Positions 1 to 30,338 of a stretch of 64,000 bases of DNA are shown here, piece after piece. Below the pieces are notes generated by a model, which saw nothing but the letters and a program-made list of their open reading frames with translations, was not told the origin of the DNA and did not search any database. The stretch comes from Candidatus Daviesbacteria bacterium (GTDB lineage: Bacteria; Patescibacteriota; Microgenomatia; Daviesbacterales; UBA10151), in contig JAQTPP010000001.1 in the NCBI GenBank assembly GCA_028712705.1, positions 81,521 through 145,520 on the forward strand, given 5' to 3'. Every line of letters starts with the position of its first letter. Within the stretch, counting starts at the first letter, position 1. A program made the translations under genes and the position numbers.

Positions 1-961
1 CGATATCATGTAAAAGCGCAGCAAACCTGACTAATGGGTCTTTCGGGGCGGTATATTTTAGCGTGAGGAGAGAATGTTCGCCTATATCGTAAACTCTGTC
101 GTGTTTTGGTCCTTTTTGGACAATGCCAAAACATTCTTCCAGTTCCGGTAAGATAATTTGTAATATTCCCGCACTCTTAAGTTTGACTATGCCGGCATAA
201 GGATTACTGGATGAAAGAATTTTAAATAGCTCATCCCGGATTCGTTCAAAGGCAATTTTTTTAATCAGATGTGCATTTGTTTCGATTGCCTGAAGAGTTT
301 TTGGGTCAATTTCAAATTCCAGCTCTGTGGCAATTCTGATGGCTCTGATTAGACGAAGGGCATCTTCCTGGAAGCGTTTGTTAGGGTCACCAACAGCCCG
401 GATTAATTTATTCTTGAGATCTTGTTGTCCGTTAAAAGGGTCAACCAATATTAGATTGTCATTGCGAACGACTAGCGAAGCAATCTTCAACGGATTGTGA
501 AGATTCCCACGGTCGCTTCGCTCCCTCGGAATGACAAGGGTGGTGTCCAATGCCATTGCATTGATAGTAAAATCTCTTCTTGCCAGGTCTTCTTCAATTT
601 TTTTTGTCCATGAAACCTCTACCGGATGACGGTGGTCTTTATAAATTCCCTCTTTGCGCATAGTCGTAATCTCGAAAATTCCACCTCCGAGGTGTAATCG
701 CATTTCTTCACCTCGGAGGTGTTTTGTGTCTTTTGACGGAATTCCTACTGTACCGAATTTGTTGTCATAGAATCCATCAGGGAAGAGTTTTAAAATTTCT
801 TCGGGTTTTGCATCTGTAGCAAAGTCCCAATCAGAAATCAGCCGGCTGGCGGATTCCATCAAAAGATCTCTAACTACCCCTCCCACAATATAAATTTGGA
901 AATTAGATTGCTGCAATTTATTTAAGATATTTTTTACCTCAGTTGGTAGTGTATAATTCAT
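1..961 (-). CDS. cca: CCA-adding tRNA nucleotidyltransferase (partial, C-terminus runs off the window start)
   Basis: Reverse-strand translation from the ATG at 961 gives MNYTLPTEVKNILNKLQQSNFQIYIVGGVVRDLLM..., the GGxVRD polymerase-beta head motif of class II CCA enzymes. The ORF continues to position 1 with no stop. Confidence 0.8.
   Translation of the reverse strand, partial: MNYTLPTEVKNILNKLQQSNFQIYIVGGVVRDLLMESASRLISDWDFATDAKPEEILKLFPDGFYDNKFGTVGIPSKDTKHLRGEEMRLHLGGGIFEITTMRKEGIYKDHRHPVEVSWTKKIEEDLARRDFTINAMALDTTLVIPRERSDRGNLHNPLKIASLVVRNDNLILVDPFNGQQDLKNKLIRAVGDPNKRFQEDALRLIRAIRIATELEFEIDPKTLQAIETNAHLIKKIAFERIRDELFKILSSSNPYAGIVKLKSAGILQIILPELEECFGIVQKGPKHDRVYDIGEHSLLTLKYTAPKDPLVRFAALLHDI
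682..721. repeat. Pair of inverted 13-nt palindromes CACCTCCGAGGTG / CACCTCGGAGGTG in-frame within cca (encodes HLRGEEMRLHLGGG)
   Basis: Seen directly. Same core as the elements at 977, 4465, 27498 and 30305. Confidence 0.7.
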
Positions 962-976
962 GATGTTATTGTACTA

Positions 977-989
977 CACCTCCGAGGTG
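977..989. repeat. Single CACCTCCGAGGTG palindrome between cca and recJ; its GAGGTG half sits at Shine-Dalgarno distance from the recJ ATG
   Basis: Seen directly, 8 nt upstream of the recJ start at 997. Confidence 0.6.
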
Positions 990-996
990 AAACAGC

Positions 997-2718
997 ATGA
1001 AGTGGAAAATAGCCCCCAGGAAATCTGATAATTTAGTCGAGCAACTTTTAATCAACCGTGGTATTAAAACCGAAAAAGAAAAAGAGCAATTTTTCCATCC
1101 TAAAATTTCCGACTTTGCTAGTGATTTACAAATTCCCGGTATCAAAAGGGCCAATAAAAGAATTTTACAAGCAATCGAAAGAGGTGAGTTAATAATAGTT
1201 TATGGTGATTATGATGCGGATGGAATATGCGCCGCGGCTGTTTTATACAAAGGCTTAACTTCAATCGGAGCAAAAGTGCTGCCTTACATTCCACACAGAG
1301 AAAAAGAAGGGTATGGGATATCAAATATAGGACTTCAGTCTGTAAAGAATTCCGGTGCTGCAGTAGTGGTGACGGTTGATAATGGAATTGCGGCAGCGGA
1401 TCAGGCAATATTCGCCAAGAGCTTAGGTTTAGATTTAATAATTACGGACCACCATATGCCCGCCGAGCGGAAAAATAAACTTTTATGGCCGGATGCATAT
1501 GCAATAATTCATTCAACTAAGATGTGTGGAGCGGCAGTTGCCTGGTGTTTAATTAGGGACTTGATTAAAAAAGAATTGAGCAATGAGCTTTTGCAGTTTG
1601 TGGCAATTGCCACAATTTGTGATCTTTTGCCGCTTTTAGGTTTAGGCAGGGCGTTTGTGTCAGAAGGACTGAAGGTTTTGAATAAGGACCTGCTTCGCTC
1701 GCGCTCTGAAGATAGTATAGCGCTCGCTCGCAGAACCTTGCCTTCGCCTAGCGGCGAACGTAAAACAACAAACCTAGGATTACAGATTCTTATTGAGGAA
1801 AGTGGAATTAAAGGACCTATTGGATCATATGAAATAGGTTATATAATCGGTCCACGGTTAAATGCTATGGGCAGGTTAGAACATGCCATTGATTCGCTGC
1901 GGTTACTTTGTACAAAAGATCCGGTTAAAGCAAAAAGATTGGCAAAACTTTTAGCTGATACAAATGTCACTCGTCAAAAAATGACCATGGAAGCGCTGGA
2001 GCAGGCAAAATTATTGATTGATAAACAAAAAAAGATTCATGTTATCTTTAGCAAAGATTGGTCTGCCGGAATTATTGGTTTAGTAGCCGGCAGGATTTGC
2101 GAGGAATACTCGCGTCCGGTAATTGCCATATCTGTTGGTGAGGAGATTTCTAAAGGTTCTGCCCGGTCTATTGACGGGATAAATATTATTGAGCTGATCA
2201 GGAAACATTCCGACATTTTAATTGATGCGGGAGGACATCCGGGCGCAGCCGGTTTTTCTCTTTTAAGCAAACATATTGAAGTTTTTAAAAAAAGGCTAGA
2301 GGAGATTATACTAGTACTTCCGGAGGAGAAAAAAGTTTTGGAAATTGATGCTGAAGTTATTGGTAAACAGTTAAATAAAACTTTAATTCATGAGTTACAA
2401 AGATTCGAGCCTTTTGGACTGGGCAACAGAAGGCCTGTTCTTGTAACCAAAAATGTGCAGATTTCTGATATTAGGACAGTAGGGGACGGGAAACATTTAA
2501 AATTTAAGGTCTCTCCCTCTGTCATCCTGAGCGGAGCGCAGCGAAGCGAAGGATCTAATGCGATTGATGCTATTGCCTTTGGAATGGGAGATTGGGTAAA
2601 TCTCTTAAAATCCGGCCAGGTACTAAACTTGGTATATAATTTAGAGTTGGATACTTATAATGGTAATGATAAAGTGCAATTAAAAGTTAAAGATATAGGT
2701 GTTAATCCTTCGGCGTAA
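997..2718 (+). CDS. recJ: Single-stranded-DNA-specific exonuclease RecJ
   Basis: 573 aa with DHH family motifs (IIVYGDYDADGICAAAV, ITDHHMP) and a DHHA1-like C-terminal region. Confidence 0.85.
   Translation: MKWKIAPRKSDNLVEQLLINRGIKTEKEKEQFFHPKISDFASDLQIPGIKRANKRILQAIERGELIIVYGDYDADGICAAAVLYKGLTSIGAKVLPYIPHREKEGYGISNIGLQSVKNSGAAVVVTVDNGIAAADQAIFAKSLGLDLIITDHHMPAERKNKLLWPDAYAIIHSTKMCGAAVAWCLIRDLIKKELSNELLQFVAIATICDLLPLLGLGRAFVSEGLKVLNKDLLRSRSEDSIALARRTLPSPSGERKTTNLGLQILIEESGIKGPIGSYEIGYIIGPRLNAMGRLEHAIDSLRLLCTKDPVKAKRLAKLLADTNVTRQKMTMEALEQAKLLIDKQKKIHVIFSKDWSAGIIGLVAGRICEEYSRPVIAISVGEEISKGSARSIDGINIIELIRKHSDILIDAGGHPGAAGFSLLSKHIEVFKKRLEEIILVLPEEKKVLEIDAEVIGKQLNKTLIHELQRFEPFGLGNRRPVLVTKNVQISDIRTVGDGKHLKFKVSPSVILSGAQRSEGSNAIDAIAFGMGDWVNLLKSGQVLNLVYNLELDTYNGNDKVQLKVKDIGVNPSA
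2521..2558. repeat. GTCATYCTGAG-family element (left half) inserted in-frame in recJ (encodes VILSGAQRSEGSN)
   Basis: gtcatcctgagcggagcgcagcgaagcgaaggatctaa shares the gtcattctgag ... cgaagaatctaa architecture with the elements at 15846, 25871 and 38006. Confidence 0.6.
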
Positions 2719-2943
2719 TTATGTTGTTATAACCCACGCTCTGCCTATCCAGAATTCTGGGTCTTTAGTTCTATCAAAACCTATTATCCTAAAAATTTTA
2801 TCTGCAGGATCTCTAAATCGTCCATTACCAATATAAATTCCTTCTGGTGAAACTGGTACGCTAACAGTTTTAAACTTTTCGCCTGGTTTAAGAGTTATGG
2901 CTGTTGGATTATTAAATAATTCTACTGCTTCAATATTGGGCAT
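2719..2943 (-). CDS. Hypothetical small protein (74 aa)
   Basis: ORF with a hairpin-GGAGGTTTCTTTATGGAAAAAAT-ATG leader that closely resembles the pheA leader. No recognisable domain. Confidence 0.4.
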   Translation of the reverse strand: MPNIEAVELFNNPTAITLKPGEKFKTVSVPVSPEGIYIGNGRFRDPADKIFRIIGFDRTKDPEFWIGRAWVITT

Positions 2944-2957
2944 ATTTTTTCCATAAA

Positions 2958-2992
2958 GAAACCTCCCGTTCGGGAGGTTTAATTTCTTTTTT
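2958..2992 (+). terminator. Intrinsic terminator-like hairpin (aaacctcccg ttcg ggaggttt) plus T-run downstream of recJ; it also forms part of the leader of the minus-strand small ORF
   Basis: Perfect 9-bp stem with a 4-nt loop followed by tttctttttt. Confidence 0.5.
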
Positions 2993-3010
2993 AGATTTTA
3001 ATTAAAACCT

Positions 3011-3059
3011 AAAAAGACCTCCCAAAGAGCGCTCCGGCAAGGAGCACCAAAAGGAGGCC
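3011..3059 (-). terminator. Intrinsic terminator for pheA (GGCCTCC...GGAGGTC hairpin followed by TTTTT on the minus strand)
   Basis: Inverted repeat gacctcc/ggaggcc with an A-run on the plus strand at 3011-3015, immediately 3' of pheA. Confidence 0.45.
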
Positions 3060-3165
3060 TAATAAGACTTCAATTCTTTTTAAATTTAAACTCAAACTTT
3101 TCGACATGATGATTATTATGCTAATAGCAGTCTCGTGATTTGTCAATAAGTGAGTAAACTACTTT

Positions 3166-4098
3166 TCATTGACCATTGATTGTGCCCGGATCTCTAGCAC
3201 CTGCTGGCAACTCGGCTTTTCTGTATGAACCCAGTATTCTAAGTGAGGAACAGTAAGTAGTTTCTAGATCATTTATACCTTGTTTGACCGTATCATTTTC
3301 AATATGCCCATCTATTGTAACCCAGAAAGCGTATTGTCTCATGATTCCGGTAGGTCGTGAATCTATTTTCGTTAAATTTATGTCGTAAGAAGCTAAAACC
3401 GTAAGGCATCTTGCTAACATTCCCGGACGATTGCTTTCGGGAACGACGAAGACGAGAGCAGTACTATCTTGACCGGTAGGTTTAGTCTCGCCTCTTCCCA
3501 GCATTAAGAAACGAGTAGAATTGCCTTTCACGTCGCCTATATCTTCTGCAAGGATAGGTACATTGTATATTTGCGCAGCTCTTCTGCCAGCTATTGCTGC
3601 AATTTGTTTATTGTTTCTTGCAAGTTCAACTGCTGCCGTAGTGCTGGAGGACGGCTCTTGTTTTGCTTGGGGATAATTATTTAAAAGATAAGTCCTGCAT
3701 TGAGCTAAAGCTTGAGGATGGGAATGAATTTCGCTTATTTCAAATCCTGGCCATCCTATTAGCATATGCTGAATACCTAATATTGTTTCCCCAAGTATAG
3801 TGATACGTCTTGTATGGTTTAGTTCTCTTAAAACCTCTACGACATCTCCTTCGATTGCATTCTCCACCGGAACGACCCCAATGTCATAACCGCCTGCTTC
3901 TACAGCTTGTACTACTGTTGCATTGTAAGGCAAAAAATCTGCATCCATTCCAGCTAAATATCTGCTCAATAATTCATATCTGGCTGCTTCCGTGTATGTT
4001 CCTTCAGGGCCTAAACAAGCTACTCTAGGTTTGGTTCTGCCTTGAGTAAGCTCGATCTTTACCGGATAATTATTTATTAATAATTCGATCTTATTCAT
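3166..4098 (-). CDS. pheA: Prephenate dehydratase (PDT domain plus C-terminal ACT domain)
   Basis: 310 aa. The N-terminal PDT domain and the C-terminal ACT regulatory domain (ALVFVVPESNRPGMLARCLTVLASYDINLTKIDSRP) are recognisable. Confidence 0.8.
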   Translation of the reverse strand: MNKIELLINNYPVKIELTQGRTKPRVACLGPEGTYTEAARYELLSRYLAGMDADFLPYNATVVQAVEAGGYDIGVVPVENAIEGDVVEVLRELNHTRRITILGETILGIQHMLIGWPGFEISEIHSHPQALAQCRTYLLNNYPQAKQEPSSSTTAAVELARNNKQIAAIAGRRAAQIYNVPILAEDIGDVKGNSTRFLMLGRGETKPTGQDSTALVFVVPESNRPGMLARCLTVLASYDINLTKIDSRPTGIMRQYAFWVTIDGHIENDTVKQGINDLETTYCSSLRILGSYRKAELPAGARDPGTINGQ

Positions 4099-4301
4099 AT
4101 ATTTTTTCCACTAAAAAACCTCCGCTTTTTAAACTGCGAAGGTTAGTAACTAAAGTTGATTTTTCTTAAGCAAAACCAACCTCCGCTTAAGCGAAGGTAA
4201 AGAAGAACAAATTAATTCTTCCTACTGGTTTTTGCATGAGCTTAATTTAACAAATATTTTTGATCTTGTCAACATGTACTTCCTGCTGTTATGATGCATT
4301 C

Positions 4302-5687
4302 ATGCAGAGTCGCACTTTAATTTTAGACTGTATTAGTAAAATAGAAGATGAAGTTAAAATTTGTGGTTGGGTGCAGGTAGTAAGAGATCACGGGAAGATT
4401 CTATTTTTAGATGTTTTGGATAGATCTGGAATCATTCAGGTTGTAGTATCTCCAGACAGTGTCCACCTCGAAGGAGTCAAAGCCCACCTTCGAGGTGAAG
4501 AGTTGCAGGTGCAACGCTACCTGGAAGGTGGATTGCATGCAATACATCCGCAAGATGTAGTTTGTATAACGGGAAAAGTAAATAAACGTCCGGAAAACCT
4601 TATAAACAAAAATATCCCAACAGGCGAGATTGAAATCTCAGCAAAAGAAATTGAAGTTTTATCTAAAGCGCGGGAGTTGCCTTTTGACATGGGCGGTAAA
4701 GATTTGGATTTGCAGCTTCCGACTTTGCTTGATTTTCGCTCCCTTACTTTACGCCACCCAAAAGTCAAAGCCATTTTTAAAGTTCAAGAAAGTTTATTAG
4801 AGGGATTTAGAAAAGCTGCCAAAGATTTGGGATGTACTGAAATTGTAGTGCCGACGATTGTGGCCGGAGCAACAGAAGGCGGTGCGGAAGTTTTTAGAAT
4901 AGACTATTTTGAACACAAAGCCTACCTTTCTCAAAGCCCCCAACTTTACAAACAAATGCTGGTTCCGGTATACGAGCGAGTTTTTGCCATAGCCAAGGCT
5001 TACCGGGCTGAGCCATCAGTGACGACCAGGCATTTGACTGAAAGCACTCAAATGGATGTTGAGATTGGTTTTGTGGAATTTGAAGAGTTACTGGATATTT
5101 TGGAGAGTGTAGCGATTAAGATGTTAAAAATTGCTGAAGAAGAATGTAAAGAGATTTTATCCGAATTTGGAGTGGAGAAAATTGCTTTCGGCAAAATTCC
5201 CAGGCTTACTTTAAGGGAAGCGCAAGATGTAATCTTAAAAGAATTTGGGCGCGATAACAGGAAGGAAAAGGATTTAACTCCGCAAGACGAAGTTGACTTA
5301 TGCAAATGGGCAAAGAAAAGTCACGGTAGTGATTTTGTGACGGTGACACATTTTCCTACTGCTGCCAAACCATTTTACACAATGCCGGATCCGAAAGATC
5401 CGGAATATTCTTTAAGTTATGATCTACTATTTAGGGGGGTAGAAATTATGAGCGGCAGTCAGAGGATTAATGATTATCAACAGTTGGTTGATTCAATCAA
5501 ATCAAGAGGTATGGATCCAAAATCTTTTGAGATGTATTTGCAGGCTTTTAAATTTGGTATGCCTCCGGAAGGTGGATTCTCCTTTGGGTTGGAAAGAATT
5601 ACCATGCATGTTTTGAATTTAGCTAATGTTAGAGAAGCCAGTCTTTTCCCAAGAGATATGGAAAGAGTAGACACCAGGTTGAGATGA
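4302..5687 (+). CDS. aspS: Aspartate--tRNA ligase, archaeal/AspRS2-like class IIb (AsnRS not excluded). The ORF track starts at 4260; the start at 4302 fits an OB-fold N-terminus better.
   Basis: Class II motifs FRIDYFEHKAYLSQSPQLYKQ and GGFSFGLERITM. The C-terminal LFPRDMERV resembles archaeal-type AspRS. Length is about 460 aa with no GAD insertion. Confidence 0.7.
   Translation: MQSRTLILDCISKIEDEVKICGWVQVVRDHGKILFLDVLDRSGIIQVVVSPDSVHLEGVKAHLRGEELQVQRYLEGGLHAIHPQDVVCITGKVNKRPENLINKNIPTGEIEISAKEIEVLSKARELPFDMGGKDLDLQLPTLLDFRSLTLRHPKVKAIFKVQESLLEGFRKAAKDLGCTEIVVPTIVAGATEGGAEVFRIDYFEHKAYLSQSPQLYKQMLVPVYERVFAIAKAYRAEPSVTTRHLTESTQMDVEIGFVEFEELLDILESVAIKMLKIAEEECKEILSEFGVEKIAFGKIPRLTLREAQDVILKEFGRDNRKEKDLTPQDEVDLCKWAKKSHGSDFVTVTHFPTAAKPFYTMPDPKDPEYSLSYDLLFRGVEIMSGSQRINDYQQLVDSIKSRGMDPKSFEMYLQAFKFGMPPEGGFSFGLERITMHVLNLANVREASLFPRDMERVDTRLR
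4465..4497. repeat. 33-nt hairpin element CACCTCGAAGG-AGTCAAAGCCCA-CCTTCGAGGTG inserted in-frame in aspS (encodes VHLEGVKAHLRGE)
   Basis: Perfect 11-bp inverted repeat with a 12-nt loop. A near-identical copy lies at 30305-30338 and a diverged reverse-orientation copy at 27498-27530. Confidence 0.75.
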
Positions 5688-6616
5688 AATACTATTTATA
5701 TTCCGCCGGTTTGATTATTCTGGCAATAATTATCACAACAGCAATCCCATTCGTGGTAGAGCTTAGTGAAAATGAATTAATCAGTTTGGCTATCCCTTTG
5801 AATAATTCAAGCGTTGCCGGTATTCAGAAATATAATATTCCACCGGTTGTTGGCAGTTTACCGGTTCCAATCGTTTCTGCCCGCGCAGTTTTTATTGAGG
5901 ATTTGGCGACCGATACAATTCTTTACCAGAAAGATGCTAATACTCCGTTTCCAATTGCATCTACTACGAAGATTATGACAGCTCTTGTCGGAGTAGAATA
6001 TTTTAAACAAAATTCCATACTAACCATTGGAAGCAGCGCAAATATCCCCGGTTCCCGGGTAGGTTTAGTTTCCGGAGAAAATCTTAGCTTTAGATCGCTG
6101 CTTTACGGTATGCTGTTAAATTCCGGTAATGATGCTGCTTTTGCTTTGGCAGAAAATTATCCGGGTGGAGTTTTGAGTTTTATATCGGCAATGAATAAAA
6201 AAGTTTTAGAGCTAAATTTGCGCAATACTCATTTCGACAACCCTGCAGGCTTTGATAGCCCAAATCATTACTCTTCCGCAGCAGATCTTGCTAAAATTAC
6301 AAAAGAAGCCTTAAAAAATTCCCAACTGGCAAGAATTTTTGCGACTAAAGAAACGAATATAGTTTCTTTAGATAAAAAATATTCCCATCAGTTATTTAAT
6401 CTTAATAAATTACTAACCCAGATTAATGGGGTTTTAGGAATAAAAACCGGTACTACTGATCAAGCTAAAGAGAACTTAGTGACGTTGATTGAAAGGGACT
6501 GGCATCGGGTTTTGATAATAATTCTCGGAAGCAATGACCGGTTTGGCGAAACTACGAGATTAATAGACTGGACTTATACGAATATTATTTGGCCGGAGAC
6601 TGAAACTCTTCGCTGA
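5684..6616 (+). CDS. D-alanyl-D-alanine carboxypeptidase (S11 family, PBP5/6-like), N-terminal TM anchor
   Basis: SxxK motif (ASTTKIMT), SxN motif (LLNSGNDAA) and KTG motif (IKTGTT). ATGA start/stop overlap with aspS. Confidence 0.8.
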   Translation: MKYYLYSAGLIILAIIITTAIPFVVELSENELISLAIPLNNSSVAGIQKYNIPPVVGSLPVPIVSARAVFIEDLATDTILYQKDANTPFPIASTTKIMTALVGVEYFKQNSILTIGSSANIPGSRVGLVSGENLSFRSLLYGMLLNSGNDAAFALAENYPGGVLSFISAMNKKVLELNLRNTHFDNPAGFDSPNHYSSAADLAKITKEALKNSQLARIFATKETNIVSLDKKYSHQLFNLNKLLTQINGVLGIKTGTTDQAKENLVTLIERDWHRVLIIILGSNDRFGETTRLIDWTYTNIIWPETETLR

Positions 6617-7664: not shown

Positions 7665-7732
7665 AAGTTCAATACGATCGCATACTGTTATTATACAAGA
7701 ATGGAAGATATAATAATCTGTGAACTCAAATT

Positions 7733-9040: not shown

Positions 9041-9059
9041 AGTTGCGCAGCTCATAGTT

Positions 9060-9706: not shown

Positions 9707-10339
9707 GTGATTACGGAGTTTAACAGAGGATCTCAGCCCGTTAGTCCTGAGCATCAAAAGTCTGTAGAAAGACTAATTTCCTTTTCCAAGGTTGCTAATG
9801 AAGGATGTTTTGATGAGTATGGTATGTTCGGGTTAGTACCAACTAACCGACCTACAACTTTAGAAAACCGTAGAAAATACTGGGCTTTAGATCTTTTAGG
9901 ATTTAGTCCTGCCGAGGATAGACTCTGGGTTAGGGAAGGCGATTTAATGATTGTATTTGGGGGAAGAGTCGATAGAATTCCTCATGCTTTAGCTGCAGGG
10001 AATGCAAGAGAGGTTAACCCGTATAGGTGCTTTAAGACTGTTGTACTTGAATCAGGATGGTTGTTTAGTATACATGCAGCCCTGAGGCAGCGTTTGCATG
10101 CTGGTTTAAGAGATGAAGATTTAGAAAAAATTTTGATGGGAGCAGAAGTAGGAAAGGAACCTCCGTTTTTTGATGACCATATCTATACCAAAGTTGAATC
10201 AGGACACGAAGGGAAAAGAGTGCAAGTTCTACCTTTTCATCCACAAAATGATGCAGTTGTTATAGATATGGAGACCAGGAAATTAATCCCAGTCCATAAT
10301 GCTGCCATATTGTCAGAGGCCAGATGGCCAAAACAATAA
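9707..10339 (+). CDS. Hypothetical protein (210 aa), GTG start
   Basis: Long ORF with a TATAAT at 9683-9688 closely upstream (near-leaderless). No recognisable domain. Confidence 0.5.
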   Translation: MITEFNRGSQPVSPEHQKSVERLISFSKVANEGCFDEYGMFGLVPTNRPTTLENRRKYWALDLLGFSPAEDRLWVREGDLMIVFGGRVDRIPHALAAGNAREVNPYRCFKTVVLESGWLFSIHAALRQRLHAGLRDEDLEKILMGAEVGKEPPFFDDHIYTKVESGHEGKRVQVLPFHPQNDAVVIDMETRKLIPVHNAAILSEARWPKQ

Positions 10340-15845: not shown

Positions 15846-15927
15846 TGTCATTCTGAGTGATTAGCGAAGAATCTAATTATTTAATCTTTAGATCCTTCGG
15901 TCGTTACACTCCCTCAGGATGACAATG
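15846..15927. repeat. Nested-palindrome MITE-like element (GTCATTCTGAGTG...CACTCCCTCAGGATGAC) between ribD and ribA
   Basis: Outer inverted repeat gtcattctgagtg / cactccctcaggatgac. Inner inverted repeat cgaagaatctaa / ttagatccttcg. Related copies at 2521, 25871 and 38006. Confidence 0.75.
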
Positions 15928-22114: not shown

Positions 22115-22533
22115 TTTCATCCAATTTATCCAACCGGTTTATCTTTGTTTTGAGCTTGTTAGGGCTTTTTGTGAGTTCTTTTTTATTTTATGAATATAAC
22201 TTGCAAGGCTCGGTTATTTGTCCGATAGGTACAGGCTGCAATGTTGTCCGGACCAGTTCTTATTCCAGTTTTATCGGGATCTCGATCCCCTTTTTAGGCA
22301 TGCTTTTTTATTTTGCAATGGCAATACTTTCAGTGGCGCATGCCCAAAAAACGTTTAATAATTTATTATTCCGGCTGAAACTTTTAATCTCTTTGTCCGG
22401 GGTTGGTTTTGGTATATATCTTACTTTCTTGGAGATCTTTGTGATCAAAGCGATTTGCTTTTGGTGCGTATTGTCGTTTATAATATCGCTTGCGATATTA
22501 CTATCGGTTATTCTAGATGAAAACAGAAACTAA
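22111..22533 (+). CDS. Vitamin K epoxide reductase (VKOR) family membrane protein
   Basis: 4-5 TM helices. Loop cysteines (CPIGTGC) and a CFWC active-site motif in the last TM. Confidence 0.65.
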   Translation: MISSNLSNRFIFVLSLLGLFVSSFLFYEYNLQGSVICPIGTGCNVVRTSSYSSFIGISIPFLGMLFYFAMAILSVAHAQKTFNNLLFRLKLLISLSGVGFGIYLTFLEIFVIKAICFWCVLSFIISLAILLSVILDENRN

Positions 22534-23161: not shown

Positions 23162-23177
23162 GATAAAAATACTAGAA

Positions 23178-23990: not shown

Positions 23991-24059
23991 AAATTTCCGG
24001 TATCATAGCTTTTGAAAAGGGTGAAAATCTAATATAATAATTACTAATTCGCCGGCCGG

Positions 24060-25058
24060 TTGATTTATAAAAACATGCTAGATTTAATCTCTATCGGAGA
24101 TGCCAGGATTGATAATTTTGTCCATTTGCCAAAGGCCCATATAAGCTGTACTTTGAACAGGGAAAGCTGTGAAATTTGTTTGAATTACGGGGATAAAATT
24201 CCGGTAGACGAGATGCGGTGTTTGCCTGCAGGAAATAATAACAATAACGCTGTGGGCGCAGCCAGATTGAAGATGAAAACAGCGCTTTACGGCAATGTCG
24301 GCGACGACGGCAACGGCAGAATGATTCTGGATCATTTAAGAAAGGAAGGCGTTGTCACGCGTTACGTGGTTGTAAACAAAGATGTGCCGACAGAGCAATC
24401 AATAGTTTTAACATACCAGGGCGAGCGGACGATTTTAGTTTATCACTATCCCTGGGATTACAGTCTGCCTGATTTGGAGCGGGCCAGATGGATCTATTTT
24501 AGTTCCGTATCTTATTCATACACCAAGACCTCTTTAATTTCTCAAATTGAAAGTTATATAGAAAGAACCGGAGCGAATTTGGCTTTCGGTCCGGGGACAA
24601 ATCAATTAAAAGACGGGGTCAAAAAATATCCGAAGCTGCTTTCTTTGACCAAAGTTTTTATTGTGAATTATGAAGAGGCCAAGAAAGTTTTGGAAATTGC
24701 GGAGGAGAAAAAAGCGGACATCAAAAAGTTACTTACCGGTTTGGCGGATTTAGGTCCAGGGATGGTGGTAATTACCGATGGAGAGGATGGATCATACGGA
24801 TTTGATGGAGATAAATTCTACAAAATCGGAATTTTTCCGGCAAATTTAGCGGAGATGACTGGAGCAGGTGACGCGTATTCGACAGGTCTTTTGGCAGGTC
24901 TTTTTCATGGAAATAGTTTAGCTCTGGCAATGCGGTGGGGTGCGGCAAACGGGGCCTCAGTTGTGGAGCAAATCGGCGCGCAAACAGGACTTTTGAGCTT
25001 GCATCAAATGCAGGAGAAATTAAAGATGAATCCTAAAATTATTGCAAAAGAAATATAG
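24060..25058 (+). CDS. PfkB-family carbohydrate kinase
   Basis: DLISIGDARID N-terminus and the C-terminal GAGDAYSTGLLAGL motif. Confidence 0.7.
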   Translation: MIYKNMLDLISIGDARIDNFVHLPKAHISCTLNRESCEICLNYGDKIPVDEMRCLPAGNNNNNAVGAARLKMKTALYGNVGDDGNGRMILDHLRKEGVVTRYVVVNKDVPTEQSIVLTYQGERTILVYHYPWDYSLPDLERARWIYFSSVSYSYTKTSLISQIESYIERTGANLAFGPGTNQLKDGVKKYPKLLSLTKVFIVNYEEAKKVLEIAEEKKADIKKLLTGLADLGPGMVVITDGEDGSYGFDGDKFYKIGIFPANLAEMTGAGDAYSTGLLAGLFHGNSLALAMRWGAANGASVVEQIGAQTGLLSLHQMQEKLKMNPKIIAKEI

Positions 25059-25070
25059 CGCAGCCGGTTT

Positions 25071-25793
25071 TTAATGTACGACCACGCGGGTACCGGGATT
25101 TTCTGCAGTTGCTCTGACAGCACCCTGGCCGGATGGAACAGTTGGTCCGGCCCAATCAAAAATTTGGGCAGCAGAGGCAAGAGGAGAGTTAACGCAGCCA
25201 TGACTCATCGGGTGGCCGAAATTATTATGCCAGTAAGCCCCGTGAATAGCATAACCCAGGTGAAAGAACATATTATTTGGAACATTAGGCAGGTTGTAGT
25301 AAGTGCCCAAGGCTTGCGATCCTCCTGCCATGCTTTGACTTCTGGTTTTATACCAGATATTGAACGTTCCTTTGGGGGTAGGAGCCCATAGGCCGGTAGA
25401 GATCGGGAATTCCATGACTAGCCTGTTTCCTTCCCAAGCCCTAAGCCGTTGTTCGTCTAAAGATATATCAATCCATTTTTCTTCCCCGGCGGGATTGGTT
25501 GTACCCAGTACTGTTTGGTTGTTGTCCTGGTTTTCGGCTAGAGATTCTGAATACGCATAAGCAAGCGATGTTTTAGGATAGTCTATAACTTTGTTGTTAT
25601 AGGTAGCGGTACTGGCTTCCTCGTTAAACTTGCCGTCTGATTTGGCAACCGTACCGGCATCACAGCAGGAGGTGGTTGGGTCGCCGGAAATGTCTAATTT
25701 ATAAACGATTGTCCGCCTGATTGATTGAAAATTAAAAGCAACGAAGGCAATAACAGCTACTATCAGCAAAAGAGGTATCAGACGGTGCAGCAT
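25071..25793 (-). CDS. L,D-transpeptidase (YkuD domain), membrane-anchored
   Basis: N-terminal TM and a catalytic HG...SHGCVN motif (HLGYAIHGAYWHNNFGHPMSHGCVNSP). Confidence 0.75.
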   Translation of the reverse strand: MLHRLIPLLLIVAVIAFVAFNFQSIRRTIVYKLDISGDPTTSCCDAGTVAKSDGKFNEEASTATYNNKVIDYPKTSLAYAYSESLAENQDNNQTVLGTTNPAGEEKWIDISLDEQRLRAWEGNRLVMEFPISTGLWAPTPKGTFNIWYKTRSQSMAGGSQALGTYYNLPNVPNNMFFHLGYAIHGAYWHNNFGHPMSHGCVNSPLASAAQIFDWAGPTVPSGQGAVRATAENPGTRVVVH

Positions 25794-25870
25794 ATAAAAG
25801 TTTTGCGCTTCCGTCTTAGCACAATTTAATTGTGAGGCAAAATTGCTCTGGACGTCAAGAGGGAGTTTAC

Positions 25871-25899
25871 TTTTTCTCTGTCATTCTGAAGCATAGCGT
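25871..25899. repeat. Half-copy of the GTCATTCTGAG-family element upstream of the second dacA-like gene
   Basis: gtcattctgaagcatagcgtaagaatctg. Confidence 0.5.
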
Positions 25900-25922
25900 A
25901 AGAATCTGTTATCATTACTGTC

Positions 25923-26834
25923 ATGAAAAAATTAGCTGTCTTGGCAACTATTTTGACTGCTCTCCTTGCAGTTTTGTTTATAATCAGTTCAAGCAAGGAG
26001 GCGGGAAATTTAATTTCCCCTCTGGCGGAGGGGACAAGAGTTTTAGGGATAAACCAATGGTTTCCGGGAAATACAAATATAGCTCAAGCAGATGCTCCAG
26101 GAGTGAGCGCGGAAGCGGTTTTGTTTGTTGATACAAAAACCGGGCAGGTTCTTTTTTCAAAAAATCCCAATAAAAAATTGCCGATTGCCTCTTTGGTTAA
26201 GGTTATGACAGCGCTCGTGGCTTTGGAACACAAAAGTATGGATGATGAATTTTTTGTTTCCCGGCATGCAGCCGAGACTGAACCTGACAAAATGTTGCTT
26301 ATTGCCGGAGAAAAATTAACTTTGAGAGAGCTTTTGGATGGAGTCTTTTTAATATCGGCAAATGATGCGGCAGAAGTTTTGAGCGAAGGTACAGCGGGAA
26401 GCAGGGATGAATTTATCAAGTTGATGAATGATAAGACGGAACAGTTAGGAATGAAAGAAACTTATTTCGTAAATCCCACCGGGTTGGATGAAGATTCCAA
26501 TAATTCATATTCAACGGTTTATGATTTGGCTATTTTGACGCGATTTCTGATAAGGCACTACCCGGAAGTTGTTGATATTTCCAAGACGGAACATATTTAT
26601 TTACCGAAGACGGAGAATCACCAGGATTATGATATGTATTCAGGGATAAATCTGTTGACAACTTATCCGGGGGTTGTGGGTTTTAAAACCGGTTATACCC
26701 CGGAGGCAGGGTTGACTTTAATAACTTTGGCAAAGAAAAATGGACATGAGGTGATAGGGGTATTGCTCGGGTCAGGGGATAGGCGGGATGAGGCAAGAGA
26801 AATTTTGGACTATTCATTTAATAAACTAAAGTGA
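25923..26834 (+). CDS. D-alanyl-D-alanine carboxypeptidase (S11 family), second paralog
   Basis: SLVKVMT (SxxK), SANDAA (SxN) and FKTGYT (KTG). Confidence 0.8.
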   Translation: MKKLAVLATILTALLAVLFIISSSKEAGNLISPLAEGTRVLGINQWFPGNTNIAQADAPGVSAEAVLFVDTKTGQVLFSKNPNKKLPIASLVKVMTALVALEHKSMDDEFFVSRHAAETEPDKMLLIAGEKLTLRELLDGVFLISANDAAEVLSEGTAGSRDEFIKLMNDKTEQLGMKETYFVNPTGLDEDSNNSYSTVYDLAILTRFLIRHYPEVVDISKTEHIYLPKTENHQDYDMYSGINLLTTYPGVVGFKTGYTPEAGLTLITLAKKNGHEVIGVLLGSGDRRDEAREILDYSFNKLK

Positions 26835-26870
26835 GTGGAAAAAATTTTGGGGAAGGGGTATGCTGGGGGT

Positions 26871-27005
26871 ATGATTGTAAAAGTTAAGGAAGGATTTAGG
26901 GTGGTGGCGGAGAGCGGGAGAAATATGGGAACTTATTCAACCAAAGAACAGGCAGAGAAAAGACTTAGACAGATTGAAATGTTCAAACACATGAGGAAAA
27001 GATAA
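26871..27005 (+). CDS. Hypothetical small basic protein (44 aa), translationally coupled (TAATG) to the downstream membrane protein
   Basis: MIVKVKEGFRVVAESGRNMGTYSTKEQAEKRLRQIEMFKHMRKR. A GGGGGT Shine-Dalgarno lies 4 nt upstream. Absent from the ORF track because it is under 60 aa. Confidence 0.35.
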   Translation: MIVKVKEGFRVVAESGRNMGTYSTKEQAEKRLRQIEMFKHMRKR

Positions 27006-27274
27006 TGCTAGGCTTTAGCCGGAAAAGATTTTTCATTACTTTGGGATTAAGTGTGGGGATGTGGGTGATCACAGCTTTGATCCAGGCATATGTAACTTTT
27101 AGTAAATATCTAGGTACTTTTTCCAGTGGCTGTCAAGTTACTGGTTATCCAATAGACGTATGTGTATTAATGGGTCCTGATGTGCCTGCTATTTTGATTA
27201 TATTAATCAATATATTTTTCTGGTTCTGGATTATTCATCTATTTTGGAATTTTTTTCAGGAACGTGGCAAGTAA
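27005..27274 (+). CDS. Hypothetical small membrane protein (89 aa, about 3 TM helices)
   Basis: Hydrophobic segments. Start overlaps the upstream small ORF stop. Confidence 0.4.
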   Translation: MLGFSRKRFFITLGLSVGMWVITALIQAYVTFSKYLGTFSSGCQVTGYPIDVCVLMGPDVPAILIILINIFFWFWIIHLFWNFFQERGK

Positions 27275-30211
27275 ACCAAAAGAGGCTAAGGTTATTATGC
27301 CTCCGGAAACTATCAGTAAACCGCCAAGAAATTCGTTTGCCGAATTTTTGGGGATTAAATTTTTCTGTTCTTCCAGGATTTTGCTGATATTGATTTGATC
27401 GGAAATATGGTTGGGGTTTTGGAAGGTAACTCCTAAGACGTCCGGCGTAGATAGGATGGAGTTTGATGATTGATTTGTGGTTTCGCTCCTAGAGCTTACC
27501 TCGGAGGAGTCAGAGCCCATCTCCGAGGTGCTAGCTGTACTGGAGGTAGAATTTGATGAGGTACCAGAGGAGATGGTTGAAGTGGGAGTTTGTGTAGGAA
27601 TTGGGGTGGGAGTAGGAGACGGGGGTATAGCAATTTCTATAGTGATGGATTGGGGGATTTCTTCGTTGCCCAGGTTATCAATTGATTTGATTTGTAAAGT
27701 GGTTTTACCCGGAGTAGAAATAATAAACGGATTTGAGTAAATATGTACAGTTTGCCCGTTATCCAAACTATATTCAATTCTTAGTATTCCTGATTCAGTA
27801 TCGTTACCGGTTAAAGTTACAGTAACTGGTTCAGTATAAACCCCTGAAAAATCTTTTGTTCCGGAGATTTGAATGTTGGTAACGGGCGGCGTTTGATCTA
27901 ATGCTGCAGAACCGGTAATTTCGCTGGTAGGACTAATGGGGACATTTATTTCGCTTGACGAATCAGGATAAAAATTAAGCGAGGGAGAAGTATCTAAAGC
28001 AGGATCAAGAGTAAATTCTACTTTGCCAACTTGAGGAACAGCAATGTCTTTATAGATTGTGGTTTTGGATATTTTATCTTGTTTATAGGTCCTTTTTTTG
28101 AGGTTAGTAGTTTTAGAGTTATTGGACGGATTTTTACGAGTTGTTTTTACTTTTACTTTTGCAGCTTTCTTTTTAACAAAAGCATGTTTAGTGTTTCCGG
28201 AAGTAATGCAAGAGACATCCGGAATATTTTCTTCTATTTCTCCTTTGTCATTTAAACCGCAGTGGCGGTTTTGATCATCATATAAATCTAATTCTCCGTC
28301 ATCCAAAGAAATTTGCTCGCCTTCCAAAACAATTCTTTCGTCTTTTACTTCCACAGGGAAAGAATTGTCATCATTTAAAATTGCTTTGACGGTTTGCATA
28401 GCTATGCCGCTGGAACTGACCAGGTCAGAGTGTTTTTGTTCTACATAATAGATTTTGATAGCACCGGAAATATCTAAAGAATCACTTTTTAAAGAGGCGC
28501 TATAAAGCGGAACAGTGCCGTCGCCATTGATAAAAATTTCATCTATTTTAGGGATTATATTAACAGGCCAGGTGATCCACCAAGTTTCATGAATTTGTCC
28601 TAAAGTTGGTTGGCTAGAACCAATGACTTCATAGATTTTAGTCCCATTAGTTTGATTTAATATCGGATCCAGCGAGCTATGGAGTGTTTCTCCAAATACA
28701 AAAACAATCATATTGTAAGCTAGGTTAGAAATGAGAGTTTTAGTTTGATCGTAATCTAGAGAACCAGTAATCTTATTATTATCTATATCGCGGTCATCTT
28801 TAAATGGATAAGGCTGATTCTGACTAGAATTATTATAGAAATCAAAGTAAGTTTTTGATGGTAATAATTGGAAAGCAGTGGGTAGATTCTGAAAAATGTC
28901 TTTCACTTCTGATGCAGGCACTCCTAGATAAAAATCACCCAATATTTGTCTACCTAGTGGTTTGCCATACATAAGAGCTTTAGTAGTATCTACTGCCCCT
29001 AAGTGAGGAACTCCCAGTTCTATCAATTTATTAACCTTAGCAGCTTTACTAGCATCTGAAATATAATACCTAGCTACTAGGCCTCCCATAGAATGGACTA
29101 CCAGATTGACTTGAGATTGACCGGAAGCTGTTTTAGCAGTTTCAATGAGATTATCTAAACTGTCTTTAGTGTTTCTGACATCTTTTCTCCAGTCATATGG
29201 AAAGGTAAAGAAATTTTTACCTTTCTCGTACCCCATTCCGGTAAAAAACGAATCAATATCAGAATATCCAAAAGAAGTTAAGTCTCCTGTTAAACTTAAA
29301 GCAGCCTCTGGGGTTTGCCCATCGGTTTTTAACCGTAAAATATCAAAATAATCATCATTTCCCAGTTCCGCAGCCTTATCCTGATTTACCCAAATCTTTT
29401 CATTGCTGGAATAAGCATGAGAATATGTCCCGCCATGGCCGTCTTGAGCAGACCAAATAATATCCTGAGATGCCTTTATCTCTGACCCGCCAATTCCCGG
29501 AATAAAAATTACCGGTAATCTTGGAGGTGGAGGTGGAGGTGAAGTGTTACTTAAGATAAAATATAAATCATCTTTAGTGCTAGAAAATACATTGCAACCA
29601 GAATTTGAAGTTTGAGAATTCCAGATATATTGAGAAGCGTTACAGAATCCGTTATCAAAAGCATATCTTAAGCCTCCGCCGCTAAATAAATCAGATCCCC
29701 CATGTCCTCCCGGACCATAAGCAGCGCTTGTAAATAATATTTTACCGCTGCCCGCGTTACCATTATTAGCATTGGTTATTAATATTAAGTACCGGTGTCC
29801 AGGGATGAAATTATAATTCCGGCAGGAAAAATCGATGGTAACGTCTTCGTATCCGATTGGGACGCCAGTTGTTGTAAAAGTTAAGCCATCTAATGGGTCA
29901 TTATGATTAGTTCCAGGACAGCCAATTATATATGAATTATTATTCTTGTCGTAGATACGGGTGTTTCTGGTGGTAAAATCAAATTGATTTAGATTGGTTC
30001 GGGAAGTACTGACTCTGAACGTGAAGGAGGATGCGGTGCCGGATAAATTATTTCCTAATTCTTGTAAAGCCCCCCAAACAGTTAGTGGATCGCTCCAAGC
30101 TTGAGTTTGTTCTGCTACAGAAACAGCAGAAATATTAGAAGTTGAGATCACAAAAAGTCCTACTACAAAAGTAAGCCGTATATATTGACGAAATGGCAGT
30201 TTTATATTCAC
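27239..30211 (-). CDS. Large secreted, C-terminally membrane-anchored surface protein with a lipase/alpha-beta-hydrolase domain (990 aa)
   Basis: Signal peptide, beta-rich N-domain and a PPPPPP linker. Lipase nucleophile elbow VVHSMGGLVARYY following PVIFIPGIGGSE. Lys-rich segment, Ig-like region, Pro/Thr/Ser-rich stalk and a C-terminal TM plus KKIPK. Confidence 0.7.
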   Translation of the reverse strand: MNIKLPFRQYIRLTFVVGLFVISTSNISAVSVAEQTQAWSDPLTVWGALQELGNNLSGTASSFTFRVSTSRTNLNQFDFTTRNTRIYDKNNNSYIIGCPGTNHNDPLDGLTFTTTGVPIGYEDVTIDFSCRNYNFIPGHRYLILITNANNGNAGSGKILFTSAAYGPGGHGGSDLFSGGGLRYAFDNGFCNASQYIWNSQTSNSGCNVFSSTKDDLYFILSNTSPPPPPPRLPVIFIPGIGGSEIKASQDIIWSAQDGHGGTYSHAYSSNEKIWVNQDKAAELGNDDYFDILRLKTDGQTPEAALSLTGDLTSFGYSDIDSFFTGMGYEKGKNFFTFPYDWRKDVRNTKDSLDNLIETAKTASGQSQVNLVVHSMGGLVARYYISDASKAAKVNKLIELGVPHLGAVDTTKALMYGKPLGRQILGDFYLGVPASEVKDIFQNLPTAFQLLPSKTYFDFYNNSSQNQPYPFKDDRDIDNNKITGSLDYDQTKTLISNLAYNMIVFVFGETLHSSLDPILNQTNGTKIYEVIGSSQPTLGQIHETWWITWPVNIIPKIDEIFINGDGTVPLYSASLKSDSLDISGAIKIYYVEQKHSDLVSSSGIAMQTVKAILNDDNSFPVEVKDERIVLEGEQISLDDGELDLYDDQNRHCGLNDKGEIEENIPDVSCITSGNTKHAFVKKKAAKVKVKTTRKNPSNNSKTTNLKKRTYKQDKISKTTIYKDIAVPQVGKVEFTLDPALDTSPSLNFYPDSSSEINVPISPTSEITGSAALDQTPPVTNIQISGTKDFSGVYTEPVTVTLTGNDTESGILRIEYSLDNGQTVHIYSNPFIISTPGKTTLQIKSIDNLGNEEIPQSITIEIAIPPSPTPTPIPTQTPTSTISSGTSSNSTSSTASTSEMGSDSSEVSSRSETTNQSSNSILSTPDVLGVTFQNPNHISDQINISKILEEQKNLIPKNSANEFLGGLLIVSGGIITLASFGLLATFLKKIPK
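27498..27530. repeat. Reverse-orientation diverged copy of the 33-nt CACCTCG...CGAGGTG hairpin element, in-frame in the lipase gene stalk region (encodes TSEMGSDSSEVSS)
   Basis: The reverse complement reads CACCTCGGAGATGGGCTCTGACTCCTCCGAGGTA. Confidence 0.6.
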
Positions 30212-30304
30212 TTTTAATACTAGAATTGTTGATCGTGAAAAAGATCAATACAATATGTCTTTAAGATGATTTAAGGTAACAAACAAATACAGATTCACCT
30301 CGTT

Positions 30305-30338
30305 CACCTCGAAGGAGTCAAAGCCCACCTTCGAGGTG
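30305..30338. repeat. Intergenic copy of the 33-nt hairpin element CACCTCGAAGGAGTCAAAGCCCACCTTCGAGGTG, preceded by a duplicated TTCACCTCG
   Basis: Identical to the aspS-internal copy. Located 14 nt upstream of the cyclophilin ATG. Confidence 0.75.

Follow-up and report, generated by a model that had tools for sequence, protein, structure and literature searches.

In-frame palindromic hairpins of a dispersed family in conserved genes of Candidatus Daviesbacteria and other Microgenomates

A 64-kb stretch of DNA from a Candidatus Daviesbacteria metagenome-assembled genome (MAG), which we refer to as the window, carries several copies of a short palindromic hairpin that lie within the genes for the CCA-adding enzyme (cca), an aspartyl-tRNA synthetase (AspRS) and a lipase-like protein, in the spacer between cca and recJ, and upstream of a gene for a membrane-anchored PPIase. 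The initial annotation of this stretch had proposed a dispersed palindromic repeat that sits in frame within conserved genes and adds short peptides to their products, as Rickettsia palindromic elements (RPEs) do, and our analysis bears this out: every copy that it listed was relocated in the window. Two forms of the repeat recur. The shorter is the 13-nt palindrome CACCTCSGAGGTG, which a pattern scan of the window matches exactly at 682-694, 709-721 and 977-989 and with one mismatch at 4485, 27518 and 30326, the last three being the 3' ends of longer hairpins. The longer form, described at first as a perfect hairpin of 33 nt, is indeed perfect and identical at two sites, 4464-4497 and 30305-30338, and measures 34 nt, 11 bp of stem closing a loop of 12 nt; in the window it reads CACCTCGAAGG-AGTCAAAGCCCA-CCTTCGAGGTG. 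The copies and their associated features are as follows.

682 to 721, minus strand: 40-nt double 13-mer inside cca, consisting of CACCTCCGAGGTG, a 14-nt spacer AAGAAATGCGATTA (coding strand) and CACCTCGGAGGTG
977 to 989, no strand assigned: solo 13-nt palindrome CACCTCCGAGGTG, lying in the 35 nt that separate the divergent cca and recJ
4464 to 4497, plus strand: canonical 34-nt hairpin, stem subtype GA/TC, loop AGTCAAAGCCCA, in the AspRS open reading frame (ORF) at 4260-5687
about 4518 to 4531, plus strand: degenerate extra arm, TACCTGGAAGGTG-like, in the added ELQVQRYLEGGLHAIH segment of the same AspRS loop; 4484-4496 pairs with 4519-4531
27497 to 27530, plus strand: decayed 34-mer TACCTCGGAGG-AGTCAGAGCCCA-TCTCCGAGGTG in the C-terminal linker, rich in Ser and Thr, of the lipase-like ORF
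30293 to 30310, plus strand: tandem duplication TTCACCTCG TTCACCTCG (30293-30301 and 30302-30310), which takes in three flanking bases and the element's 5' end
30305 to 30338, plus strand: 34-nt hairpin, the same as the AspRS copy, in the intergenic DNA that separates the divergently placed lipase-like gene (minus strand, start at 30211) from that of the PPIase (plus strand, ATG at 30352)

The tandem pair in cca stands as first reported, in a gene that lies on the minus strand, starts at 961 and runs past the window edge, and its peptide HLRGEEMRLHLGG is read in frame, as is the HLEGVKAHLRG of the AspRS copy (ORF 4260-5687, publicly annotated as an aspartate--tRNA(Asn) ligase of Candidatus Daviesbacteria). 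The gap between the 13-mer and the recJ ATG at 997 is 7 nt and not 8, and that between the 34-mer and the PPIase ATG is 13 nt and not 14. The diverged copy in the lipase-like gene (27239-30211, minus strand, 990 aa) had been called reverse; it shares the plus-strand orientation of the other two 34-mers and is antisense only to its gene, in which it is read as TSEMGSDSSEV. The lipase orthologue of L017 (other loci are cited here by their L numbers) has TSEVDSDSSEV at this place, and that of L038 carries the opposite loop orientation and reads TSKESEPTFEV. The third arm at about 4518-4531 had escaped the initial annotation, and makes of the AspRS loop a composite or decayed insertion, the extra ELQVQRYLEGGLHAIH segment of which is peculiar to the window orthologue. 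The duplicated TTCACCTCG is present as reported, and looks like a product of slippage rather than a target-site duplication, because both of its copies lie on one side of the element; the same position in L017 reads TTTACCCTGTC. In the orthologous PPIase-upstream copy of L017 the flanks are the same and the stem is GG/CC where that of the window is GA/TC.

Chance does not account for these copies. Within one mismatch, CACCTCSGAGGTG is matched six times in the window against 0.03 expected from shuffles, no identical pair of 34-mers is expected at all, and the repeat recurs across about 40 genomes and more than 120 metagenome contigs. The proposed folding also holds, with the 34-mer reaching -11.3 kcal/mol as DNA and -18.0 kcal/mol as RNA and being far more stable than shuffled sequence (z of about -5.5). 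The hexamer CACCTC occurs 30 times in the window (15 expected), and 16 of the 30 belong to elements; chance words resembling the Shine-Dalgarno (SD) sequence were rejected as the source of this excess on the same comparison of 30 with 15. Three tandem GAGGTG hexamers on the plus strand at 29524-29541 (three CACCTC on the minus, coding strand of the lipase-like gene) form no hairpin and add to the excess.

To place the family, we scanned a species-representative genome collection with a pattern that fixes 26 of the 34 positions. The 34-mer, CACCTCNNAGG-AGTCARAGCCCA-CCTNNGAGGTG, has 78 further copies at 75 loci in about 40 species-level Microgenomates MAGs, nearly all of them Daviesbacteria, Curtissbacteria, Levybacteria, Gottesmanbacteria or unclassified Microgenomates, with one to seven strict copies per genome. 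Together with the 34-mers of the window, these loci make up a set of 81 copies, among which orthologous copies are not independent and conservation is partly built in, because the scan fixed 26 positions. IMG/VR viral contigs gave no match to the 34-mer, and carriage by phages was rejected on this ground. Several of the records, among them L001, L004, L007, L008 and other accessions beginning with CA (binchicken co-assemblies), are titled "uncultured Gammaproteobacteria"; their AspRS, cca and other genes are 60-80% identical to those of Daviesbacteria, and the names are evidently placeholders or errors. We found no description of such elements in the literature on the Candidate Phyla Radiation (CPR), Patescibacteria and Microgenomates, of which our coverage is incomplete, so that a prior description is possible.

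Most copies lie in genes. Counting as coding those that lie in an ORF of 150 codons or more, with 15 or more to either side of the element, so that coding status is inferred from ORF length, 64 of the 81 copies fall within long ORFs; 67 coding copies with usable flanks represent about 40 distinct protein sites. The hosts, identified from Pfam, include TatD, TsaD, topoisomerase I, FGAM synthase (PurL), HMG-CoA reductase, polyprenyl synthase, thiolase, MurB, NAD kinase, PfkB kinase, M24 peptidase, a release factor, LeuRS, CysRS, Tyr/TrpRS, AspRS and the CCA-adding enzyme. Since about 92% of the window is ORF, the 34-mers are somewhat enriched in the small intergenic fraction, even if most of them are still genic. 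Five of the six frames through the 34-mer are open, and the 64 coding copies (41 in sense and 23 in antisense orientation relative to transcription) use them very unequally.

Sense frame 2, TS[KE]ESKPT[FS]EV: 24 copies, 17 site-by-frame combinations
Antisense frame 2, TS[KE]VG[FS]DS[FS]EV: 22 copies, 17 site-by-frame combinations (18 with the decayed lipase copy of the window)
Sense frame 0, HL[ERG]GV[KR]AHL[RG]G: 15 copies, 9 site-by-frame combinations
Pro/Arg-rich frames, PRRSQSPPSR and PRRWALTPSR: 3 copies, 5 site-by-frame combinations
Antisense frame 0, HLEGGL*, which contains TGA: 0 copies, 0 site-by-frame combinations

Judged from the ORFs, this bias is the pattern to be expected if the insert is translated and harmful frames are selected against. 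The positions within the host proteins are likewise, as far as models and alignments indicate, structurally permissive ones at the surface. In the AlphaFold (AF2) model of the window AspRS, residues 57-75 have a predicted local distance difference test (pLDDT) score below 50 and lie between the confident strands 44-49 and 86-95; the cca insert HLRGEEMRLHLGG aligns, in a comparison with PDB entries, to the tip of the beta-hairpin that precedes the E[IV]TTFR motif of solved CCA enzymes; and the empty counterparts are short turns rich in G, D or N.

The comparison of orthologues shows that relatives need not carry the segment. The AspRS loop, which sits between the strands ...IQVV and QDVVCITG, is short (8-13 residues, usually 11, e.g. 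ADGGKAPDLHP) in 98 of 120 Daviesbacteria-type orthologues and longer in 22, which are scattered over a neighbour-joining tree computed with the loop masked. Fourteen or fifteen of these 22 show peptides of the family in differing frames and variants, namely HLEGVKAHLRG, TSKESKPTFEV, HLGGVMASQAQPATIRG, HLPGEQRRHLEG, HLRGEPEVKSGLHLGGG, or HLRG alone. At the cca site L072 and L139 have the bare turn GTVGLVVGNGIFEITTM, L009, L020 and L039 the 34-mer, and the window the 40-nt variant. Empty sites, always short turns, were also found in a SucC-like protein, polyprenyl synthase, thiolase, a G5-domain protein and PurL, and the frame differs at orthologous sites, AspRS reading HLEGVKAHLRG or TSKESKPTFEV and PurL HLEGVKAHLRG or TSKVGFDSFEV. 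L072, L020 and L009 have no 13-mer in the spacer orthologous to that before recJ, and the 13-mer of the window is by this comparison a lineage-specific addition. A search of metagenomes for an empty allele of the PPIase-upstream site (flank-N{0,30}-flank) gave no match. No common DNA motif was found at empty sites; the palindrome CATCCTCAGGATG beside the AspRS loop was rejected as a target motif, as it encodes the conserved HPQD motif. In L072 the AspRS loop (about 5023-5106) holds a 34-mer with an insertion of about 24 nt in its own loop, followed 12 nt on by a solo 13-mer, the whole being read as TSKESPSTSLGTSKPTFEVDKKAHLRGE.

The only near-isogenic pair of filled and empty alleles, L079 and L080, comes from replicate samples of the Hainich groundwater well H51 and concerns a sister element whose arms differ from CACCTC. 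The two are identical over about 1.6 kb, bar a few point differences, unaligned ends and a tract of about 165 nt at the AspRS loop, where one allele has a palindromic element with CACCCC arms and the other an 11-residue empty loop. From the alignment, this difference is one of a short recombination tract or an allelic cassette. Divergence between L078 and L077 likewise peaks around the AspRS loop, and filled AspRS alleles share flanks.

Once in place, the hairpin turns over at the DNA level. The stem pairs 7-28 and 8-27 covary among GA/TC, GG/CC, CG/CG and CC/GG, with 97.9% of cells paired and 79 of the 81 copies fully paired at these two free positions, and a search with the loop only recovered copies compensated elsewhere in the stem (L026, L008 and, at cca, L039). 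Double changes separate orthologous copies, as between GA/TC at window position 30305 and GG/CC in L017, or between L037 and L066. The loop is inverted with identical junctions at five orthologous sites: TatD (L004 against L030 and L050), TsaD, the G5 protein, topoisomerase I and the lipase. Such inversion makes the sense and antisense readings of frame 2 equally common, and limits frame 0 to one orientation, since the flipped form has a stop. Quasipalindrome correction is a known process, and by analogy with it we infer that perfect stems and flipped loops are produced by hairpin-templated repair or template switching, for which selection for structure would not be required. Stem changes on one side only are not consistently G-U wobbles in the mRNA sense, and RNA-level selection acting through such wobbles was rejected for this reason. 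The hairpin can also shrink: the 34-mer in the AspRS of L078 and the CATCTTCGAGGTG of L081 have the same flanks and differ by a deletion of 21 nt between internal direct CNCCT repeats that keeps the frame, and the solo 13-mer at recJ has the exact form of such a deletion derivative. Other copies are decayed, nested or interrupted (window 27497, L017, L036, L072), and decayed copies stay in frame.

The 34-mer is one of several forms built on the same arms. Scanning metagenomes for pairs of full 13-mers 6-30 nt apart, which gives a lower bound, recovered a double-13-mer sister family with at least 126 copies on at least 120 contigs. Its spacers fall by sequence into classes of 11, 14, 17, 20 and 23 nt, and more generally the loops and spacers of 8-30 nt form several sequence classes between constant arms CACCTCSGAGG(TG). 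The cca spacer of the window, AAGAAATGCGATTA (HLRGEEMRLHLGG), recurs in unrelated proteins (L092, L200, L120, L194 and L115). Among the matches listed, 124 of 126 copies have complementary centre bases in their two 13-mers, long ORFs hold 98 of the 126 (48 read as HLRG...HLGG, 46 as TSEV...TSEV and four as PPRC), and the spacer length is 2 mod 3 in 99 of 126, which places both arms in the same benign frame. Related elements have different arms, CACCCCSGGGGTG in L079 and CAAACCSGGTTTG-12-CAAACCSGGTTTG at 41259-41296 of the window. At the level of sequence, constant arms with interchangeable interiors are the pattern of transposable elements of the miniature inverted-repeat type (MITEs).

The junctions give a hint of how copies arrive. 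T prevails at position -2, C or T stands at -1, and T, A or G at +1; the flanks are T/A-rich, not specifically TA, and a G before or a C after the element is almost never seen, which makes the edge of the palindrome sharp. Identical dinucleotides flank 18 of 81 34-mers, where shuffled pairings give 10.8 (p ~0.007; orthologous copies are not independent), and, among the matches listed, 27 of 126 double 13-mers against 12.8 (p <0.0002; the copies again not being independent). Most copies lack identical flanking dinucleotides, and the excess is a statistical hint of a 2-bp target duplication. The common lengths of the element, 34, 37, 40, 43, 46 and 49 nt, are all 3n+1, so that together with a 2-bp duplication each would add a whole number of codons. 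The gains of 12 aa for the 34-mer in AspRS (L007, L032) and polyprenyl synthase and of 14 aa for the 40-mer in the window cca agree with such a length of element plus two.

We consider it probable, with real room for doubt, that these hairpins are a selfish palindromic family, MITE-like in build and of the size of repetitive extragenic palindromic (REP) units, which has spread through Microgenomates and survives in protein loops as RPEs do. The inverted arms CACCTCSGAGG(TG) would be its constant part and the interior, either the 12-nt loop AGTCARAGCCCA or a spacer of 11, 14, 17, 20 or 23 nt, would set the subfamily. Copies would insert by a MITE-like process, in which the arms serve as terminal inverted repeats and 2 bp of the target may be duplicated, and filled alleles would also move between strains on short tracts of homologous recombination. 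They would persist only where an extra 10-14 residues are harmless, that is, in beta-turns and surface loops and in benign frames, and most survivors would be in genes because the genome is about 90% coding; there they would be transcribed and translated within the host protein. Hairpin-templated repair would keep the arms complementary through compensatory double changes and flip the loop in situ, and slippage between internal direct CACCT repeats would remove 21 nt and leave a solo 13-mer.

Several observations weigh against this reading. The transposase or other mobilising enzyme of this reading is putative, and no pair of solo arms 0.4-4 kb apart, as a parent insertion sequence (IS) would present, was found in 1.36 Mb of 8-kb loci around hits, a small and biased sample; the two copies of L193, at a distance of 1 kb, share one ORF. 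Strict 34-mers are few in any one genome (one to seven). Translation of the insert is deduced from open frames and frame bias. Several gains depart from element length plus two (+10 or +11 aa for frame-0 AspRS, +11 or +13 aa for cca, +8 aa for the SucC-like protein), and the overall range is +8 to +16 aa. Recombination of filled alleles weakens the case for many independent insertions in one loop; several events are still needed, in view of the different frames, orientations and subfamilies at one loop and of the unrelated repeat families in the same loops (L059, L047, L010). These repeated hits, unrelated families included, could also reflect targeting instead of random insertion followed by selection. 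Finally, class-level lineages retain one and the same hairpin loop, and so do orthologous sites with only 40-80% protein identity in the flanks; this fits an active, homogenised element and equally well a motif selected by the host.

A bolder form of the transposable-element reading, which we regard as possible but doubtful, is that the family is adapted to coding DNA and is driven by a putative enzyme, conserved across Microgenomates, that recognises the hairpin or the terminal repeats. The 3n+1 lengths with a 2-bp duplication would then preserve the frame, the spacers would hold both arms in two benign frames, loops would flip and stems correct themselves by way of the hairpin, and filled alleles would sweep between strains on recombination tracts of about 150 nt. 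If this were true, no class of transposable element smaller than this 'nano-MITE' would be known, and it would systematically give rise to odd loop insertions in CPR housekeeping proteins.

The arms themselves match the 3' tail of 16S rRNA (the anti-SD) and a perfect SD sequence, and the initial annotation had proposed that they sequester ribosome-binding sites. This is not supported: about four fifths of the copies are intragenic, and even a loose SD-like motif precedes only 8 of the 50 gene starts of the window. A TATAAT-type, -10-like box ends 4-11 nt upstream of 10 of the 50 starts against 2.9 +/- 1.7 at random positions (the starts at 9707, 10740, 18597, 30352 and 46413 exemplify the survey), which suggests that many transcripts of this Daviesbacterium may be leaderless. 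Such a box, TGTATAAT (30337-30344), lies 7 nt before the PPIase ATG, in the same arrangement in L017, and the last two bases of the 30305-30338 copy are the TG of this extended -10 box. Because it abuts TGTATAAT, the hairpin is probably upstream of the transcript start and in the promoter; the box was read directly from the sequence, and a two-hexamer promoter scan does not call it for want of a -35 match. At recJ the GGAGGTG of the 13-mer has good SD spacing, 7 nt before the ATG, and the hairpin is weak; elsewhere only a handful of intergenic copies place GAGGTG 5-10 nt from a start. An intergenic copy may thus occasionally donate an SD-like GGAGGTG, perhaps at recJ, and the resemblance of the arms to anti-SD and SD is probably incidental. 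No T-run follows the element at any window copy, and a terminator role was rejected on that account. A replication-strand-specific, single-strand mechanism of the IS200/IS605 or REP kind was also rejected: the three window 34-mers share one orientation, on the strand with positive GC skew, but across the 81 copies the match to skew is only 51:30, a weak bias due to gene orientation, and L014, L036 and L068 have 34-mers of opposite orientation within one gene. An Rfam 15 search of the window at the gathering threshold returned two tRNAs only and matched no family to the element. Two copies adjoin RNA genes: in L041 (5135-5601) a 34-mer starts 8 nt after the 3' end of the tmRNA gene, and in L068 (6552-6684) another is found 28 nt upstream of a tRNA gene. 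Reports place RPEs within tmRNA and RNase P RNA genes, whereas these copies are adjacent to theirs.

More broadly, the hairpin could be an RNA or DNA signal that the host selects and tolerates because it is useful, be it for RNase III-type processing or stability, as a pause, as a site for a nucleoid or replication protein, or as an SD-sequestering switch. Perfect stems kept by compensatory changes would suit such a signal, as would arms and a loop common to Daviesbacteria, Curtissbacteria, Levybacteria and Gottesmanbacteria, arms that equal anti-SD and SD, the proximity of some copies to RNA genes or starts (8 nt after the L041 tmRNA, 7 nt before the recJ ATG), and the fact that copies at orthologous sites that lie outside the search pattern are mostly intact hairpins despite diverged flanks. 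We nevertheless think it unlikely. The 41 sense and 23 antisense copies and the flipping of loops at fixed sites make a loop-specific RNA signal improbable, and one-sided stem changes lack a consistent G-U preference; presence varies among close orthologues, even within one population, and copies decay, shrink to 13-mers and are interrupted. Their positions are those of protein loops and not of gene boundaries, SD sequences are rare, the PPIase copy probably precedes a leaderless start, and no Rfam family matches. A signal for DNA uptake or recombination drive in competent CPR cells, by analogy with the DNA uptake sequence (DUS) of Neisseria and the uptake signal sequence (USS) of Haemophilus, would account for filled and empty alleles on contigs that match except in a short recombination tract, for the patchy occurrence of filled alleles with shared flanks on the AspRS tree, for class-wide conservation in both orientations and for enrichment in housekeeping genes. 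It leaves the origin of new sites unexplained, and the density is about one copy per 10-20 kb rather than one per kb (six copies in 64 kb; one to seven strict 34-mers per genome). Moreover, copies add 30-42 nt to empty sites instead of arising by substitution, and few arms stand alone (18, where complete hairpins number about 220), so that the hairpin, rather than a short uptake word, is the unit. The lack of matches in viral contigs carries no information on this point. We hold this explanation to be very improbable.

Two further ideas would make the insert either irrelevant to the protein or the very object of selection, and neither persuades us. That the element is excised from the message like an intron, or skipped by programmed ribosomal bypass so that host proteins are unaltered, has in its favour that the bypass elements known from T4 gene 60 and yeast mitochondria are comparable to a stable hairpin inside an ORF, and that introns abound in the RNA genes of CPR genomes (PMC13011429). 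The frame bias argues against it: the frame with the stop is unused and the Pro/Arg-rich frames are strongly avoided, which would be irrelevant in an untranslated segment, spacer lengths hold both arms in a benign frame, and decayed copies remain in frame. We regard it as highly improbable. Still less credible is a conserved peptide module selected at the protein level, with the DNA palindromy secondary. Its peptides do recur on the surface loops of many proteins, yet the same DNA is read as three unrelated peptides, the frames differ at the orthologous AspRS and PurL sites, identical copies stand in non-coding DNA, and it is the nucleotide and not the amino-acid sequence that is conserved.

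A selfish, MITE-like family has its closest behavioural parallel in RPEs, and the hairpin family represents the behaviour already known from them, in an unusually small and unusually intragenic element of another lineage. In RPE-bearing gmk the insert is translated and the protein is active. Like RPEs, the Microgenomates element is dispersed and palindromic, lies in frame in unrelated conserved genes with a peptide compatible with the fold, is missing in orthologues and also occurs between genes, has no known transposase, and lives in small reduced genomes. To our knowledge the two are unrelated in sequence. RPEs (for these and the related palindromic repeats that code for protein in Wolbachia, see Ogata et al. 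2000, 2002 and 2005, summarised in PMC10969869 and PMC2229807) are 105-150 bp long (PMC2229807), with terminal repeats of about 12 bp and a long imperfect stem, and about half or fewer of their reported insertions are intragenic (PMC10969869, PMC2229807). The Microgenomates element, at 34-50 nt, has little beyond two arms and a loop, is about 80% intragenic and is spread class-wide in the CPR instead of over one genus; its size excludes membership in RPE-1 to RPE-10.

REPs and REPINs are mobilised by RAYTs, belong to GTAG- and CGTC-tagged superfamilies, have imperfect stems, and are predominantly extragenic, downstream of genes, with occasional intragenic copies, even at the same recB site in two Xanthomonas species (PMC3733652). 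Our element shares with them a palindromic unit of 20-40 nt (34 nt here) that forms a simple stem-loop in many copies; it differs in its CACC/GGTG ends, its perfect stems, the lack of GTAG or CGTC in its flanks and its mostly intragenic location (64 of 81 34-mers; 98 of 126 double 13-mers among the matches listed), and REP membership fails on the tag and on the extragenic location. Known MITEs with in-frame intragenic copies, such as the 107-bp form of Correia, ERIC/RU-1 and RU-3, are 100-170 bp long, mostly intergenic and typically flanked by TA (PMC2229807, PMC2759123). Our family shares with them constant terminal inverted repeats around a variable interior and an ORF that runs through the element and is fused to the host ORF, and may share a 2-bp target duplication; its flanks are T/A-rich but not specifically TA, and no parent IS is known for it. 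Membership among MITEs is plausible and no more. The coding palindromes of Nematomorpha mitochondria are also perfect inverted repeats kept inside functional genes, with structure and coding both preserved; they reach 284 bp, and both of their arms encode conserved parts of the protein (PMC6649704), and, in contrast to ours, they are not a dispersed family inserted into loops. As for uptake sequences, the class-wide hairpin resembles them in being a short lineage-wide sequence in both orientations that is frequent in housekeeping genes, is confined to tolerant frames and protein regions, and is spread by recombination. The DUS of Neisseria and the USS of Pasteurellaceae are words of 10-12 nt that occur about once per kb and arise by substitution without a change in length, whereas the Microgenomates unit is a length-adding hairpin found about once per 10-20 kb; a DUS-like drive is unlikely on density and mode of origin.

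CPR (Patescibacteria) genomes are among the most streamlined known, and despite this streamlining, selfish-looking palindromes are lodged class-wide in their aminoacyl-tRNA synthetases, topoisomerase I, release factor, CCA-adding enzyme and other core genes. The Rickettsia phenomenon is thereby extended to a much smaller element in an unrelated branch of Bacteria, where the question of the mobiliser can be asked with thousands of MAGs. Some of the lineage-specific insertions in loops of CPR proteins find a concrete explanation in the family, which also cautions annotators and structure predictors that segments of 10-14 residues such as HLEGVKAHLRG and TSKESKPTFEV are repeat-derived, and supplies natural markers of recombination between uncultivated strains.

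The window holds other repeats as well. An unrelated palindromic element of about 78 nt, GTCATTCCGAGGGAGCGAAGCG...CGCTAGTCGTTCGCAATGAC, lies in cca at 458-535 (minus strand) and is read in frame as VIPRERSDRGNLHNPLKIASLVVRND, a segment without counterpart in solved CCA enzymes. Members of a GTCATYCTGAG...CGAAGRATC family occur at 2521-2555 in recJ, in frame as VILSGAQRSEGS, and between genes at 15847-15873, 38006-38032 and 25868-25906; in L059 and L047 members of this family sit in protein loops that the 34-mer fills in other genomes. The intergenic element at 41259-41296 (CAAACCCGGTTTG, 12 nt, CAAACCGGGTTTG) consists, like the one in cca, of two 13-nt palindromes with complementary centres, and has other arms. 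A 45-nt direct repeat with the palindrome TCCACCCCAAGGGTGGA, 98% identical between 34191-34235 and 34915-34959, brackets an ORF at 34247-34897 (minus strand) that has a paralogue at 40587-41237, and the region 34191-34959 may be a small duplicated or mobile cassette.

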